DNA of 64,000 nucleotides from a virus. The stretch spans positions 1 to 64,000 of IMG/VR virus record IMGVR_UViG_3300028394_000066; one strand, given 5' to 3'. Every line of letters begins with the position of its first letter. Position 1 is the stretch's first letter. Below are positions 4,377 to 63,404 of the stretch, piece by piece. The notes beneath the pieces are model-generated. The model made no database searches, was not told the DNA's origin, and saw only the letters and a list, made by a program, of their open reading frames with translations. A program made the position numbers and the translations under genes.

Positions 4377-5357
4377 GTGGCAATTCTCGGCACAGGTATT
4401 CAGGACGGACTGCTCCTCAAGCCAGTCAAATATCAATGGGCAATGGACCTTTACAACCAAGCGGTTGCAAACACATGGTTTCCCAACGAAATTCAACTCG
4501 GTGAGGACATTGCCGATTTTAAAAAGATGTCGGATGAAGAGCAGCACGCTATTACATTCCTCATGTCCTTCTTCAACCCTTCGGAACTGATTGTCAACAA
4601 GGCACTGGCGTTTGGCGTCTACCCCTACCTCAACGCCGCCGAGGCACACCTGTACCTCGCCAAACAGATGTGGGAAGAAGCGAATCACTGCATGTCGTTC
4701 GAGTACATCCTCGAGACGTTCCCCGTGGACCGTGAAAAAATCTATGCGCAGCACGTAGAGCACCCCGCAATTGCCAACAAGGAAGCTTTTGAAGTTAAAT
4801 ACATCAAGCGCATGTCCGACGAGCGTCTTGACATCACTACGGTTGAGGGCAAGCAGGACTTCGTCCGCAACCTCATCGCGTACAGCGTCATCATGGAAGG
4901 TATCTGGTTCTACACAGGGTTCATGGTCGCCTTGTCGTTCCGCCAGCGCAACCTGCTCCGAAACTTCGGTTCGCTCGTTGACTGGATTGTTCGTGACGAG
5001 TCGCTCCACCTCAAGTTCGGAATCAACCTCATCCTCACGGTGTTGGAAGAAAACCCAGAGATTGTTACCGACGACTTTGTGGGCGAGGTTAAGATGATGA
5101 TTCTTGACGCTGTGGACATGGAGGTTGAGTACAACAAGGCTATGCTCCCCAACGGTATTCTCGGCCTTAACCATGACTACATCAGCACTTACACTAAGTA
5201 CATTGCTGACCGTCGTCTTGAGGAACTTGGCTTTGCGCCGCACTACAACGTCAGCAATCCCGCAAAGTGGATGGCTACGGCTAACGACACTCTGCAGTTG
5301 GTTAACTTTTTCGAGAGCACAAACACCTCGTATGAGGTCAACGGGGCAACCAAATAA
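4377..5357 (+). CDS. nrdB: ribonucleotide reductase beta subunit, class Ic-type
   Basis: WFPNEI, EEANH, MEGIWFY, RDESLH, NFFE motifs; Phe at radical-Tyr position (HCMSF), Glu first ligand (PSELIV). Confidence 0.95.
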   Translation: MAILGTGIQDGLLLKPVKYQWAMDLYNQAVANTWFPNEIQLGEDIADFKKMSDEEQHAITFLMSFFNPSELIVNKALAFGVYPYLNAAEAHLYLAKQMWEEANHCMSFEYILETFPVDREKIYAQHVEHPAIANKEAFEVKYIKRMSDERLDITTVEGKQDFVRNLIAYSVIMEGIWFYTGFMVALSFRQRNLLRNFGSLVDWIVRDESLHLKFGINLILTVLEENPEIVTDDFVGEVKMMILDAVDMEVEYNKAMLPNGILGLNHDYISTYTKYIADRRLEELGFAPHYNVSNPAKWMATANDTLQLVNFFESTNTSYEVNGATK

Positions 5358-17893: not shown

Positions 17894-19027
17894 ATGGCTT
17901 CAGCCATTACAGGTTCGTCGCAGCTCGCTTCTGCACCTACCGCTTATTCAGGGTCTAATAGCTCGCTCTCGCAGGCTATTCAGACTATCTGGTCGAAGGA
18001 AATCCTCTTCCAGGCAATGCCCATCCTCCGCTTTGAGCAGTTCGCTGTTAAGAAGACTGAGCTTGGAGTTTCGCCTGGTTTGCGCGTTAACTTCCTCCGT
18101 TACAAGAACTTCGCAGTGGACCCCTCGCCGCTGACCGAAGGTGTCCGTATGACCACCAACGCATTGACCGCAGAGCAGATTGCTATCACGGTTGCCGAGC
18201 ACGGCTACGCCGTTGCTGTTTCGGAGCTTCTCCTCAACAGCTCGTTCGACGACATCATGGCTTCGGCTTCGCGTCTTCTTGGTCGCCACATGGCGCAGTA
18301 CCTCGACCTTCAGGCTCGTAACACGCTGTCGGCTGCTACTTCGGCTTCGTTCGGTTACGACCGCACAGGCATCACAGGTGGCGCTTTCACGAACTACGAC
18401 GAAGGTTCCGTTGGTACCAGCATCGGTGCGCTTGACGGAAACCACAAGCTGACCACGGGTGCCATCAAGGACTCGGCCCTTGTTCTTGCTTCAAAGAACA
18501 TTCCGAGAATTGGTGAGACTTACGTACAGTTCATCCACCCGAAGCAGTCGCGTGACCTTCGTTCGAACCCCGAGTTCATCGAAGTTACGAAGTACGCTGC
18601 TCCTGGTAACTTCATGCTCGGTGAAATTGGTCGTCTCTACGACGTCGTCTTCATCGAAACGACTCAGGTAAACAAGCTTGCTGCATCGCAGGCTGGCTAC
18701 ACCACTTCGACCAACGTCGGCGCTCCTGCTACACAGGTAACCGTTCCCGTCAAGGCGAACACGGCTCCTGGTTCGGGTGGAAACCCCATTTCGGCTGACT
18801 ACACTGCTGAAAAGGGTTACCTCACCTCGGCAACAGGCAACACTGCTGACGTTTACGAGTCCATCATGATTGGTGACAACGCATTCGGTCACGCAATCTC
18901 GCTCCCCGTTGAGCTCCGTGACGGTGGCGTCCTCGACTTCGGTCGTGAGCACGCTCTCGCATGGTACTCCATCTGGGGCCTCGGTATCATCACCGACCAG
19001 GCTATCAACAAGGTTTACACCAACTAA
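17894..19027 (+). CDS. major capsid protein (N4-gp56-like)
   Basis: LTEGV, EHGYAV, FIHPKQSRDL, GEIGRLYDVVFIET; strong codon bias. Confidence 0.92.
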   Translation: MASAITGSSQLASAPTAYSGSNSSLSQAIQTIWSKEILFQAMPILRFEQFAVKKTELGVSPGLRVNFLRYKNFAVDPSPLTEGVRMTTNALTAEQIAITVAEHGYAVAVSELLLNSSFDDIMASASRLLGRHMAQYLDLQARNTLSAATSASFGYDRTGITGGAFTNYDEGSVGTSIGALDGNHKLTTGAIKDSALVLASKNIPRIGETYVQFIHPKQSRDLRSNPEFIEVTKYAAPGNFMLGEIGRLYDVVFIETTQVNKLAASQAGYTTSTNVGAPATQVTVPVKANTAPGSGGNPISADYTAEKGYLTSATGNTADVYESIMIGDNAFGHAISLPVELRDGGVLDFGREHALAWYSIWGLGIITDQAINKVYTN

Positions 19028-58793: not shown

Positions 58794-60797
58794 ATGAACG
58801 TCATTACTACTAAAGAACAACTCGACGAGTTTGTTCAGTATTACGCCAAGGTTGAAGCATTCGCCTGGGACGTAGAGACCATCGGGGATAACCGTCTGTA
58901 CCCCGTTATCAACGACGTTTGTTGGATTTCTTTTGCGACCGATGGCCGTGTAGATGTTATTCCCATGGGCCACCCTAACGGTGAGCTTGAAGGCCACGAC
59001 AAGCCTTTACTTCTTCCTGGACAACGACGACTCGCGGAAGGAAAACCCATCCTTGACTCGCACTACTCTAAAGACCAGCGTAAATGGACTGCTAAGTTTG
59101 GTGAAGCACCAGAGCAACTTACCCCTCGCCAAATCTTTGACGCTATTGAGCCGCTTATGTTTGGTCCCGCCTTAAAGATTGCGCACAACGCCAAGTTTGA
59201 CTTAAAGTCAGTCGCAAAATACTACAAGGGGAGTGTTCCCGCAAAACCCCATTTTGATACCCTGATGGCTGCTTTTATCATCAACAACATGAACAAGTTT
59301 GACCTTGGACTTGCTGCTTGCGTAAAACGCGAATTAGGCATAGTGGTGGAGAAGGGTGTGGGAGAAAACGTCGCTCTACACGCGTTCTCAGAGGTAGCAA
59401 AGTATTCAGGTATAGACGCTGAGGTTACTTGGAAACTTTATCAAGCCCTTGCCCCTAAGATTACTGGCAACCTACAAAAGGTTTGGCGTCTTGAAACTGA
59501 CGTGCTAGCTGCTCTCTGTGACATGGAATTAACTGGTGCTTACTTAGACCAAGCAGCCCTCAAGACACTCGCAGAAGAGGTGGAAAAGGGCAAGATTGAT
59601 GCCGAGGCCAAGTGCTACAAAGAAGCAGGAAAAGCCTTCTCTATCAACTCAGTTCCCGCCAAGCAGATGCTTTTGTTTGGGTCTGAGAACGGCCAGAAGC
59701 CCCGTCTGCCAGCCCCAAACCCTAAGTTTAAGACTGTGCTCACCCCTAAAGGACAAGCGGCTCACAAGGCTCGTGAGGCCCTTACACACATTCACTATTC
59801 TGTTTCAGCAGAAGCCCTCGAGTTTCATCGTGGCAAAGATGCTTTGGTTGACGCACTCCTTGAGTACCAAGACCTCAATAAACTTATGACTACCTACGTA
59901 ACTCCGTATACAGGTGGGGACGTTAAGCGCGTCACCAATGGTAAAGAAAAAATTACTAAGCGTAAGAGCCTCCTTATCAATGGACGAGTACACACTAACT
60001 TCAAAGCCCACGGTGCCGAGACGGGACGGTTCTCGTCATCCGAACCAAACCTTCAAAACATTCCTTCATCAGGAGAATACGGAAAACTAGTACGCAATCT
60101 TTTTGTAGCTCCTCCTGGGTATAAGCTGGTTGTTGCAGACTACTCTCAGATAGAGCCAAGAATTATTGCATCTTTCTCAAAAGACCCAGTTATGCTGGAG
60201 AACTACATGACTGGAGGAGATATCTATACTACAATTGGTGATACGATGGGCGTCGACCGTCAGGCTGGAAAAGTCTTGGTCCTCGCAATCTCATACGGGG
60301 TAGGTCCCGACAAGATTGCAGCGTCTGTTGGGTGTACTGTAAAGGAAGCTAAAGACCTCCTTAACCGCTTTGAAGCAAAGTTTGCTTCCATTGCGCAGTA
60401 CAAAGCCAAGGTAATTCGTATGGCAAAGCAGGCGGGGCCCATCCCGTTTGTTGAAACAATGTTTGGACGCCGCCGCTACATTCCCGACCTTAAATCCTCA
60501 GAGTTTGGATTGCTGGGTAGGGCCGAACGTCAGGCGTTTAACACAATGATTCAGGGGTCAGCTGCTGACCTCATGAAACTGGCTTTAGTTCGTGCACACT
60601 CGTGTTTTGTAAATGAGCCAGATATAAACTTAATTCTCACAGTACATGATGAACTTGTGACAATTTCGCCAGAGAATAAAGCTACTGAAGTTGCCGAGGC
60701 AATTCGTGAATCTATGGAGGGTATACAGTTGTCTAATATTACTGTTCCGCTAATTGCAGACGTTAAAATTGTAGACAAGTGGGGTGAAGCAAAGTAA
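58794..60797 (+). CDS. polA: family A DNA polymerase (3'-5' exonuclease + polymerase)
   Basis: DVET, HNAKFD, TGRFSSSEPNLQNIP, DYSQIEPR, IQGSAAD, VHDEL. Confidence 0.96.
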   Translation: MNVITTKEQLDEFVQYYAKVEAFAWDVETIGDNRLYPVINDVCWISFATDGRVDVIPMGHPNGELEGHDKPLLLPGQRRLAEGKPILDSHYSKDQRKWTAKFGEAPEQLTPRQIFDAIEPLMFGPALKIAHNAKFDLKSVAKYYKGSVPAKPHFDTLMAAFIINNMNKFDLGLAACVKRELGIVVEKGVGENVALHAFSEVAKYSGIDAEVTWKLYQALAPKITGNLQKVWRLETDVLAALCDMELTGAYLDQAALKTLAEEVEKGKIDAEAKCYKEAGKAFSINSVPAKQMLLFGSENGQKPRLPAPNPKFKTVLTPKGQAAHKAREALTHIHYSVSAEALEFHRGKDALVDALLEYQDLNKLMTTYVTPYTGGDVKRVTNGKEKITKRKSLLINGRVHTNFKAHGAETGRFSSSEPNLQNIPSSGEYGKLVRNLFVAPPGYKLVVADYSQIEPRIIASFSKDPVMLENYMTGGDIYTTIGDTMGVDRQAGKVLVLAISYGVGPDKIAASVGCTVKEAKDLLNRFEAKFASIAQYKAKVIRMAKQAGPIPFVETMFGRRRYIPDLKSSEFGLLGRAERQAFNTMIQGSAADLMKLALVRAHSCFVNEPDINLILTVHDELVTISPENKATEVAEAIRESMEGIQLSNITVPLIADVKIVDKWGEAK

Positions 60798-61204
60798 TGT
60801 TTTTTAAAAAGAAAAAGAAGACCCTTACTTTACGCGACATCAACAACCGCATTCGCGGGTTTATCTTGGATTCACAAATTCAGAATGCTCATGAACTAAG
60901 CGTAATTTTGGGATGTTCCAATATTAGCAGTGAAGTTCAAGAGCGTGAAGAAGAGGAGAGCGACAAACGCATCGAAAAAATTTCATATTTAGTTCCACTA
61001 CTATACGCTCACGTTCACCTTTTGGCAGAAGGAGCAGTGGAATACCAGAAGAGCACTCTACCTGAAGAATTTAAAGATTTTCCAGATGAGATTTGGATGG
61101 AAAGCCGTAGGATGATGGAACAAGTCGCCATATCAACACTCGTGGGGTCTGTGTCACAACTTATTGACATGGGGCTCATTGATATTCCAAGAAAGCACAA
61201 GTAA
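60797..61204 (+). CDS. hypothetical protein
   Basis: TAATG coupling. Confidence 0.75.
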   Translation: MFFKKKKKTLTLRDINNRIRGFILDSQIQNAHELSVILGCSNISSEVQEREEEESDKRIEKISYLVPLLYAHVHLLAEGAVEYQKSTLPEEFKDFPDEIWMESRRMMEQVAISTLVGSVSQLIDMGLIDIPRKHK

Positions 61205-61208
61205 ACTA

Positions 61209-61298
61209 ATGAATGAATACACAACAACCGACGCTGTAGACGGTTACGCCTGCCCCATCGACCCGATGGAAGCACTTCAGTGCGAGAGCTGCCAGTAA
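61209..61298 (+). CDS. 29-aa peptide resembling RNR alpha C-terminal redox tail
   Basis: MNEYTTTDAVDGYACPIDPMEALQCESCQ*; fills the gap between two genes. Confidence 0.75.
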   Translation: MNEYTTTDAVDGYACPIDPMEALQCESCQ

Positions 61299-61313
61299 TA
61301 CTATAGGAGTAAA

Positions 61314-61691
61314 ATGAGTAACGCGGATTGGTGGGCCCAAAAACTGGGCAATACACAACCAGTACAGCAGGGGCGACCCGTTCCTAATATTCCTATGCCG
61401 CCGTCTCAACAACCTATGACGCCGATGCCCACGTTTCAGCAGCAACCGTCTGCTGGGCGTGCGCAAAGCGCATCTCAAGTCTTATCCTGTCCTGAATGCG
61501 GTTCAGGAAACTATATGTCTGTAGCAGGAACAGCGCCCCGTTGTTTTGATTGCGGGTACCCCATCGAGCAGTCGGGCTCCCGATACGGTAATTTATCTAC
61601 CGCTCGAGTTGAAGGAGCAGCCCAATCCGCTCGCGGCAATGACACAAAAAGTAATTGGAATCCCCAAGGAATTATCGGAACTATAAATTAA
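61314..61691 (+). CDS. zinc-ribbon protein
   Basis: CPECGSGNY...RCFDCGYP; SD AGGAG. Confidence 0.8.
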   Translation: MSNADWWAQKLGNTQPVQQGRPVPNIPMPPSQQPMTPMPTFQQQPSAGRAQSASQVLSCPECGSGNYMSVAGTAPRCFDCGYPIEQSGSRYGNLSTARVEGAAQSARGNDTKSNWNPQGIIGTIN

Positions 61692-61720
61692 CCTACCCAA
61701 CTAAAACAAGGACTACTAAA

Positions 61721-62764
61721 TTGATAAACCCAGATGCATTAAAAGTTATGGCCCAAATTAACAAACGCTTTGGAGGCGATACTGTTGTTATTGGCGGAGA
61801 TATTCGTAACGACCTTATTCCTCGTGTTACTACTGGCTCTACTACTTTTGATTACGTTCTTGGTGGGGGTTTTCCTGCTAATCAGTGGAATGAACTCATC
61901 GGAGAACCTAGCCACGGCAAAACGGCTATCGCGCTCAAAGTCATCGCAGCAAACCAGGCGCTAAATCCAGACTTTACTACCGTATGGATTGCGGCAGAGC
62001 AGTGGGTTCCCGACTACGCAGCAATGTGTGGTGTCGATGCCAGCCGTGTAATCGTAGTTGAAACTAACATAATGGAAGAGGCGTACGACGCCGCCATTGC
62101 TTTTGCAGAATCAAAAGCGGTAGACGCTATTGTTATTGACTCATTGCCCGCTCTTGTTCCTGGGCCTGAAAATGAAAAAAACATGGACGAAATGACCGTT
62201 GGTCGTGGAGCTCTCTTGACTAACAAGTTTTTCCGTAAAGCTGGCGCTGCTATGAAACGCTCACTTACCGAAGAAGAGCGCCCCATCATGGGGCTCATCA
62301 TTAACCAGTGGCGCATGAAGATTGGGGTCATGCATGGAGACCCCCGCACTACTCCTGGTGGAGTAGGAAAAGACTACGCGTACTTTACCCGCTCAGAAGT
62401 TCGTCGTGACGAATGGATTGAAACTGGTTCTGGAGATAACAAAGTTCGTGTAGGACAGCGTATCAAAATTCGTGTCACCAAGAACAAGACTGCCCCGCCA
62501 CAACAGATTGCGTACGTGGATTTCTACTTTAAAGACCACTCAATCTACGAGGCAGGAGACTACGACACGGCTAAGGAAGTTGCCGCCATGTCTATTGTTA
62601 AACAAATTGTTGACCGACGAGGTGGTTGGGTCTACTACGGTGAGCGTAAGTGGCAGGGCCTAGAGGCCCTTGTGAACTCTATCCGTGAAGAGGTAGACTT
62701 ATTTGAAGAGCTACGAGATAAGGTTCTCGAAGACTCACCCCAGATTCCTATTGTAACGGAGTAA
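61721..62764 (+). CDS. recA: RecA/UvsX-like recombinase
   Basis: GEPSHGKT; IVIDS; INQWR; TPGG; KNK. Confidence 0.93.
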   Translation: MINPDALKVMAQINKRFGGDTVVIGGDIRNDLIPRVTTGSTTFDYVLGGGFPANQWNELIGEPSHGKTAIALKVIAANQALNPDFTTVWIAAEQWVPDYAAMCGVDASRVIVVETNIMEEAYDAAIAFAESKAVDAIVIDSLPALVPGPENEKNMDEMTVGRGALLTNKFFRKAGAAMKRSLTEEERPIMGLIINQWRMKIGVMHGDPRTTPGGVGKDYAYFTRSEVRRDEWIETGSGDNKVRVGQRIKIRVTKNKTAPPQQIAYVDFYFKDHSIYEAGDYDTAKEVAAMSIVKQIVDRRGGWVYYGERKWQGLEALVNSIREEVDLFEELRDKVLEDSPQIPIVTE

Positions 62765-62767
62765 TAC

Positions 62768-63088
62768 GTGAAAAGCGAAGGTCAGAAGCAGTCCCAGAAA
62801 CACGAGAAACGTCTCGCAAAAGCTGTAGGAGGGCAAACCACAGCCGCTTCTGGGGCCTTCTGGTCTCGCAAAGGCGATGTACGAAGCCCCACGCTTCTTA
62901 TAGAACACAAGTGGACTGGAAAGAAAACCAAAACTATTAGCTCAACAGAGCTTAAGAAAATTACCAACGAAGCAATAATGGACGGAAGACTCCCAGTGTT
63001 TGGGATTCACCTAGACGGGGAAGATTATGTAGTCCTTCTCGAGACAGATTTCCTCGAACTTTGGGACAAATTACATGCTGCGAACTGA
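62768..63088 (+). CDS. Holliday junction resolvase-like PD-(D/E)xK nuclease
   Basis: HEKRLA...SGA...KGDV...LIEHK. Confidence 0.8.
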   Translation: MKSEGQKQSQKHEKRLAKAVGGQTTAASGAFWSRKGDVRSPTLLIEHKWTGKKTKTISSTELKKITNEAIMDGRLPVFGIHLDGEDYVVLLETDFLELWDKLHAAN

Positions 63089-63404
63089 CTACGAGCACTG
63101 GACCGACCAAGCTCGGTGCTCTGGGATTGAAAACCCTGACATATTCTTTCCCCCCCGTGACAAAGACCTTTATAAAAAAATAGCAACAGAGGCGAAAGCC
63201 ATGTGCTCAGGAGTCAAAGGTTCAAGTCCTTGCCCAGTTAGAACCCAATGCTTGTGGACCGCAATCGAGGACGACGAGCAACATGGAATCTGGGGAGGCT
63301 TAAGCCACCGTGAACGAAACGCCGTAGTACGTAAGTGGAGTCGAAACTTCAAAAGTAAGATGACACTAAAGGAATACATATTCCAACTAAACAAGGAGAA
63401 CTAA
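63075..63404 (+). CDS. whiB: WhiB-family transcription factor
   Basis: W..QARC...FFP...C...CPVRTQC...HGIWGGLS..ER. Confidence 0.93.
   Translation: MLRTDYEHWTDQARCSGIENPDIFFPPRDKDLYKKIATEAKAMCSGVKGSSPCPVRTQCLWTAIEDDEQHGIWGGLSHRERNAVVRKWSRNFKSKMTLKEYIFQLNKEN

Follow-up and report, generated by a model that had tools for sequence, protein, structure and literature searches.

Sequence comparison supports the view that a 29-codon phage gene encodes, as a peptide of its own, a homologue of the redox tail that ends NrdA, the alpha subunit of class I ribonucleotide reductase (RNR), which would act on the alpha subunit of the host; that the peptide shuttles electrons is inferred. The hosts of this phage group are likely freshwater Microbacteriaceae, and their operon consists of an nrdA gene without its tail, the peptide gene and nrdB. 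In class I enzymes, each turnover leaves a disulfide in the active site that is re-reduced by a cysteine pair at the C-terminus of alpha, and this pair is in turn reduced by thioredoxin or glutaredoxin (PMC9669993, PMC5704485). We consider it probable that the peptide works as a diffusible dithiol tail re-reducing the tail-less host NrdA, and that the phage copy, together with an R2c-type NrdB, raises the supply of dNTPs, this function being an inference.

A conserved micro-gene in the replication module

The window analysed here covers the initial 64 kb of an IMG/VR phage contig that is 79 kb long and has an estimated completeness of 82%. Its relevant features are collected in Table 1, where the WhiB gene, the family-A polymerase and the RecA/UvsX-like gene together identify an actinophage replication module. 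The peptide gene lies within this module, between polA and the recA-like gene as the initial annotation had placed it, 56 kb away from nrdB and outside any RNR operon.

Table 1. Features of the window that bear on the peptide gene.
Feature	Position	Strand	Basis
nrdB, class Ic (R2c-type) RNR small subunit	4377..5357	+	PF00268, 1SYY alignment, Microbacteriaceae identity
polA, family-A polymerase	58794..60797		
Upstream 135-aa ORF, function unknown	60797..61204	+	
29-aa peptide gene, free-standing NrdA C-terminal redox-tail homologue	61209..61298	+	ORF, family, host split/fused homologues, purifying selection
Downstream 125-aa ORF, function unknown	61314..61691	+	CPxCG...CxxCG, zinc-ribbon-like
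RecA/UvsX-like gene	61655..62764		
WhiB gene	63075..63404		

The reading frame runs from ATG through 29 codons to TAA, and its product, MNEYTTTDAVDGYACPIDPMEALQCESCQ, is identical to the translation given when the ORF was first described. The invariant residues are Tyr13, Pro16, Asp18-Pro19-Met20, Cys25, Cys28 and Gln29. The ATG is located 4 nt past the TAA of the upstream 135-aa ORF, a distance so short that coupling through translation reinitiation is likely. At the other end, the TAA lies 15 nt ahead of the 125-aa ORF, to which the TAGGAG Shine-Dalgarno sequence belongs. This downstream ORF, conserved ahead of recA and with a Pro/Gln-rich N-terminal part, matched no family.

The junction between the two flanking ORFs is variable. 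Among 80 loci recovered through RecA, a tblastn search for the peptide was positive in two (L049 and L059), and a third relative, L120 from the complete genome G007, was recovered with the motif pattern described below; in all three the peptide gene occupies the junction that it has in the window. The 135-aa and 125-aa ORFs meet in an ATGA overlap in roughly half of 75 relatives, and other relatives present unrelated inserts of up to 826 nt (junction at window positions 61204..61314; loci L002-L081). Given this variability and the abutting ORFs of the relatives, the peptide gene is an insertion at this site. A different Cys-rich small ORF is included in the insert of L064. We also considered that the gene might be the remnant of a deleted phage nrdA, and rejected this origin because the flanking ORFs abut in about half of the relatives and the start of the peptide is conserved.

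A strain variant seen in public runs displays 6 base changes within the peptide ORF, of which five are synonymous, including a double change from CTT to TTG that keeps the leucine; the single replacement falls in the variable N-terminal half. Contigs of a lake metatranscriptome extend over the two flanks and some of the ORF, leaving 32 nt uncovered between contigs, and transcription remains unproven since the origin of a contig from an RNA library is no proof of it.

Database searches with the peptide returned no Pfam match (E<=0.01) and none in NCBIfam, PHROGs or the PDB, and PDB sequence searches with the peptide and with its profile gave nothing even at E<=10. Neither Pfam nor NCBIfam nor PHROG holds a model for it, and megablast of the locus against GenBank phages found no match. 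With the 44-aa TTG-extended frame as query, a word-indexed protein search returned a single match of similar length, a 29-aa metagenome peptide, and no match among longer proteins.

Relatives were recovered when viral contigs were searched with a degenerate DNA pattern (DPM[ED]AxQCESCQ-stop). It was present in 28 contigs, always closing an ORF of 24-33 codons and never a long one. These ORFs have an ATG, GTG or TTG of their own, and many an AGGAG-type Shine-Dalgarno sequence; terminator hairpins lie downstream of some. When 1.84 billion representatives were searched with a profile built from 27 phage peptides, 399 clusters matched at E<=0.001; of these 399, the best 150 are all 25-151 aa long and the match is C-terminal in nearly all of them. 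The resulting family is large, its members mostly 21-36 aa in length, with the invariant pattern Y..P.DPM....C..CQ-COOH. Cys25, Cys28 and Gln29 of the QCESCQ-COOH end do not vary across the 27 phage and 36 host sequences compared, which gives the peptide the near-terminal CxxC expected of an alpha tail. This is the only conserved cysteine pair, the first cysteine (in 'ACP') being variable. The frame in the window is confirmed as a genuine conserved phage micro-gene, and a chance ORF is excluded.

The tail is separated from NrdA in host operons

Eighty bacterial loci were fetched through NrdB alone, and thus provide an unbiased test for the peptide. In 79 of them the motif is found between nrdA and nrdB, just upstream of nrdB, and the lone exception includes merely 204 nt of upstream sequence. 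The host consensus reads ...Y-x-V-P-[VITM]-D-P-M-D-x-L-[QH]-C-[ED]-S-C-Q, followed by the stop codon. In 76 of the 80 loci, from Microbacteriaceae and Saccharibacteria, it is encoded by a separate small ORF with its own ATG and a Shine-Dalgarno sequence inside the last codons of nrdA; its predicted product measures 21-36 aa in Microbacteriaceae; that of Saccharibacteria is longer, at about 57 aa.

In four actinobacterial genomes NrdA itself ends, in frame, with this motif: L210 (Parenemella) and L185, both from the NrdB-retrieved loci, and L227 and L228, two Actinomycetota genomes from a phylum-wide sample. These fused proteins end in ...DG[TS]ACP[VI]DPQERLQCESCQ and a stop codon, and the initial annotation, which had read the phage ORF as a free-standing class I alpha CxxC tail, is borne out by this homology. 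Only four matches were obtained with the last 60 residues of the L210 NrdA as query, so that the spread of the fused form is unmapped; the fused NrdA of Arachnia carries an NCBI name. In a further locus, L198 (MAG MFD02832.bin.2.33), NrdA enters the peptide via an alternative frame of the GFG region, which suggests a frameshift introduced in assembly more than a genuine fusion.

If the tail has become a separate product, the cognate alpha should otherwise lack C-terminal cysteines. Accordingly, in 71 split NrdAs the 40-83 residues that follow KTxYY are entirely free of cysteine, and the proteins close with the Gly/Ala-rich sequence ...R[RK]GFGFGG... at the C-terminus. They keep the catalytic cysteines (C225 and C454) as well as the NLCTE and KTTYY motifs. 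Three genomes were checked for further PF02867 proteins (Aurantimicrobium, MWH-Ta3 and one of Saccharibacteria), and none has any besides this tail-less NrdA. The peptide, on the other hand, is not covalently continuous with an alpha body, either in the phages or in 76 of the 80 host loci. An alpha without its terminal CxxC, and a peptide co-occurring with such an nrdA, had both been put forward as checks; the latter is seen in 76 loci, where the peptide ORF stands beside the Cys-less 3' end of nrdA. The earlier suggestion of a split RNR holds with one correction: a separate tail gene does exist, but the split sits in the host operon and not in the phage. Homology to the fused tails, position in the operon and the Cys-less NrdA together identify the peptide as the split-off redox tail of a class Ic NrdA.

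In a midpoint-rooted NrdA tree the fused clade is placed next to Microbacteriaceae, with Saccharibacteria apart. The tree allows one or two split events and cannot decide between them, and the split of Saccharibacteria may be independent or may have been acquired from their actinobacterial hosts. The peptide profile matched 3 of the 401 Actinomycetota genomes of the phylum sample; the system is lineage-restricted, without any claim of absence elsewhere.

Aurantimicrobium minutum MWH-Bo1 has three copies of the peptide gene (L226, L229 and L230): one in the nrdA-nrdB operon, a second following an endolysin/holin pair that is prophage-like, and a third on the chromosome next to MaoC/MurB-like genes.

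Host peptides of 25-30 aa (L155, L214, L182 and L186) are named 'ribonucleotide-diphosphate reductase subunit beta' in RefSeq/GenBank, which is a misnomer. In one case, a Clavibacter entry, the name given is 'Ribonucleotide reductase, alpha 2 subunit', and at least one annotator must therefore have noticed the split.

NrdB and the missing alpha subunit in phages

The NrdB of the window is a full-length PF00268 protein (1.7e-73) whose best PDB match is 1SYY, the R2c of Chlamydia trachomatis (E 5.9e-73). The alignment pairs 'ffnpSElivn' with 'ffstaEslvg' and 'eanHcmsF' with 'eavHthtF', so that a glutamate replaces the first aspartate metal ligand and a phenylalanine the radical tyrosine; with this class Ic signature, the R2c-type beta subunit claimed at this position holds. 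The protein is 78-88% identical to the NrdB of Saccharibacteria and of Microbacteriaceae (Aurantimicrobium, MWH-Ta3, Pontimonas, Microcella, Rhodoglobus, Leifsonia and Clavibacter), and the gene is host-derived. Its alpha-binding C-terminal tail, FFESTNTSYEVNGATK, is nearly identical to the Microbacteriaceae host tail, FFESTNTSYESNGATA, and the phage NrdB should therefore assemble with the host NrdA.

No alpha subunit had been noticed in the window, and its absence extends to the whole 79-kb contig, from which alphas of class I/II (PF02867) and of class III (PF13597) are both absent. As the contig is only 82% complete, an alpha in this phage is not strictly excluded; the complete relative G007 has none. 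The contig also contains no thioredoxin or glutaredoxin.

Across phages the peptide is always a free-standing ORF, and a class I alpha was found in none of about 35 phage records searched. Twenty-one of 32 phage nrdB loci include a peptide ORF within 6 kb on either side, and several of these have the peptide stop codon overlapping the start of nrdB. In the complete genomes of five phages (G007, G015, G017, phiPsal1 and Pan2) the peptide occurs without alpha. Four of them are also without nrdB, including G015 (29.5 kb) and G017 (61 kb), which have neither RNR subunit; the exception is G007 (93 kb, with terminal repeats), where nrdB is accompanied by a peptide gene at the junction seen in the window. 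In small phages the peptide gene comes after an M23 endolysin/holin cassette and before the terminase gene.

Two of these phages are in culture. Pontimonas phage phiPsal1, temperate and without RNR genes, encodes an unannotated 30-aa homologue, MSDPFDAIDRVDGIDVPIDPMDLLQCTSCQ, directly after the holin gene (L231:2495-2587; MG835450.1 about 18371..18463), and offers a tractable phage-host pair. Its peptide shares the DPMDLLQC variant with the Pontimonas hosts. Pseudanabaena phage Pan2, which has no RNR gene either, encodes a 26-aa homologue, MDDFDTIDGFACPNDPADLVSCESCQ, that overlaps CDS Pan2_27 in another frame (L232:2489-2569; ON968453.1); the peptide is odd in a phage recorded on a cyanobacterium.

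Some relatives of the window phage carry a class II NrdJ in place of nrdB. Loci L082, L083 and L144 (genomes G005, G003 and G006) encode a monomeric NrdJ-like protein of 680-710 aa with the tail ...CTTDACE..., and G006 has both this gene and the peptide with nrdB. The coexistence of both modules in G006, and the replacement of nrdB by NrdJ in relatives, indicate that RNR modules are swapped within this phage group. An origin of the peptide from the class II NrdJ of related phages was rejected, the NrdJ tail (CTTDAC...ENS) being unrelated.

In phages the peptide gene accompanies nrdB, in some cases with translational coupling, and is never found with nrdA. This leaves room for a peptide that serves NrdB rather than NrdA, as a metal-handling or cofactor-activation factor of the Mn/Fe R2c protein whose cysteine pair would bind or reduce metal, and a terminal CxxC is indeed capable of metal binding. 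We regard this role as unlikely: many peptide-bearing phages have no nrdB, the motif forms the NrdA C-terminus where the two are fused, it stands exactly where class I alpha tails bear their CxxC, and the split NrdAs have lost all of their C-terminal cysteines.

Phage and host peptides differ in sequence, for instance ACP against VP and E-A-L against D-D/E-L. Peptide mimics of RNR tails, such as beta C-terminal peptides, are known as inhibitors. Both points would suit a phage copy acting as a decoy, one that competes for NrdA or soaks up thioredoxin and so shuts down or re-routes host nucleotide metabolism. We find this very hard to reconcile with a peptide that retains the redox CxxC and every invariant residue, that is co-encoded and coupled with a functional-looking nrdB, and that has a prophage copy and an extra chromosomal copy in Aurantimicrobium; moreover, the need of a phage is for more dNTPs, not fewer.

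Frame and selection of the peptide ORF

In Microbacteriaceae the stop of nrdA and the peptide ATG usually share bases, in an ATGA or a TAATG, and the frequent -1 frame of the peptide relative to nrdA follows from the ATGA stop/start overlap. Some host loci have the peptide in the 0 or +1 frame, with intervening stops and spacers of 2-20 nt. In Saccharibacteria (L159, L167, L179 and others) a spacer of 130-260 nt follows nrdA, and the peptide of about 57 aa has a helical-looking N-terminal extension, ...AAPLDPADLTMCEGCQ.

Over the last 17 codons, pN/pS is 0.1-0.4 in four syntenic phages and 0.24 in the host loci found via nrdB alone. Among 52 distinct host DNA versions, pS reaches 0.58 and pN 0.14, and most of the host-invariant residues (Y, V, P, D, P, M, C, C and Q) are encoded by several (2-4) synonymous codons. 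These values show purifying selection on the peptide ORF.

That the host tail is joined to NrdA by programmed frameshifting or readthrough, leaving the phage ORFs as non-functional leftovers, is to be discounted almost entirely: the -1 frame of most Microbacteriaceae loci, often open far upstream, would permit it, but is accounted for by the ATGA overlap, and the other frames with their stops and short spacers, the long Saccharibacteria spacers, and phage copies that have no upstream nrdA, use their own Shine-Dalgarno sequence and start, and evolve under purifying selection all contradict it.

Proposed mechanism

Under the preferred reading, a diffusible tail for the host NrdA, the Y-x-[VC]-P-x-D-P-M segment would most likely dock the peptide on NrdA, allowing its C-terminal dithiol to reduce the active-site disulfide formed in each turnover; the oxidized peptide might in turn be re-reduced by thioredoxin or a related redoxin. 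Unlike a tethered tail, a free peptide has no benefit of local concentration, so the model has to assume a docking site. Complex prediction for the Microcella NrdA (824 aa, 42-row alignment) with its own 36-aa peptide scored 0.12 and 0.24, below the mark of 0.32, and is counted neither for nor against binding. Translation of the peptide, its binding to NrdA and the transfer of electrons are all inferred, without biochemical or proteomic evidence.

The stop/start overlap of the host genes should keep peptide and NrdA levels in step. In infected cells, the phage peptide and NrdB would raise the levels of both the shuttle and the radical subunit, leading to a faster turnover of the host NrdA and to more dNTPs. 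With a diffusible shuttle the rate of re-reduction is set by its concentration, and a phage can thus lift RNR throughput by overproducing the peptide.

Relation to known systems

The peptide resembles the tail of class I alpha (NrdA/R1) in its near-terminal CxxC, its acidic and apparently disordered sequence, the direct homology of the 'ACP[VI]DPQERLQCESCQ' end, and the location of the host gene in the nrdA-nrdB operon. It differs in being a separate product of 21-36 aa in the hosts, and a stand-alone one in phages without alpha.

Among described systems the nearest is NrdJa+NrdJb, a split class II enzyme of the Pseudomonas aeruginosa type, in which the Cys-bearing C-terminal part is separately encoded (PMC5704485, PMC9669993). 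There too, the re-reduction cysteines belong to a separate gene beside that of the catalytic subunit. NrdJb, however, belongs to a B12-dependent class II system and is a folded, Cys-rich zinc-finger domain a few hundred residues long (PMC5704485, PMC9669993), the homologous domain tested comprising residues 715-947 (PMC5704485), whereas the peptide has a mass of 3 kDa, belongs to a class Ic enzyme and bears no sequence relation to it. With 29 aa and two conserved cysteines it cannot provide the four-Cys zinc finger plus redox pair of an NrdJb-type protein.

Aeromonas phage Aeh1 encodes both halves of an NrdA body that a mobile endonuclease gene has divided (PMC3045599). Both cases involve a phage-associated class I alpha made of more than one polypeptide, but in the present system only the tail is split off and the body is encoded by the host. 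NrdH and the Grx domain on the Facklamia NrdB, an RNR-fused reductant (PMC6187632), are likewise small CxxC components genetically tied to RNR that feed electrons to alpha. These are thioredoxin folds of at least 75 aa that reduce the alpha tail, whereas the peptide is the tail itself; at 29 aa it is too short for the fold of about 75 aa, and it matched no redoxin family. In the open-access full-text literature we found no description of a class I alpha with a micro-protein tail, nor of a phage-borne tail peptide.

Discussion

The route that the class I alpha tail takes to the active site is still poorly resolved, since the tail is disordered in structures. A natural free tail peptide would permit titration, mutation, cross-linking and trapping on NrdA. 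It also means that an essential enzyme can delegate a step of its catalytic cycle to a micro-protein, and one that standard annotation misses or misnames, as with the RefSeq 'subunit beta' entries, the unannotated phiPsal1 gene and the wrong frame called in Pan2.

On the phage side, the finding describes an auxiliary metabolic gene of about 90 nt, a small accessory (moron-like) element spreading among unrelated phages of freshwater Actinobacteria. Its acquisition suggests that the re-reduction step, and not only subunit supply, limits dNTP synthesis during infection. We lean towards the wider proposal that a class Ic RNR lineage, that of Microbacteriaceae and Saccharibacteria, runs on a diffusible dithiol peptide of about 3 kDa, which phages exploit through a gene of about 90 nt that is often their sole RNR-related gene. 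If this is true, the peptide gene would be among the smallest auxiliary metabolic genes known, tuning the dNTP synthesis of the host in trans.
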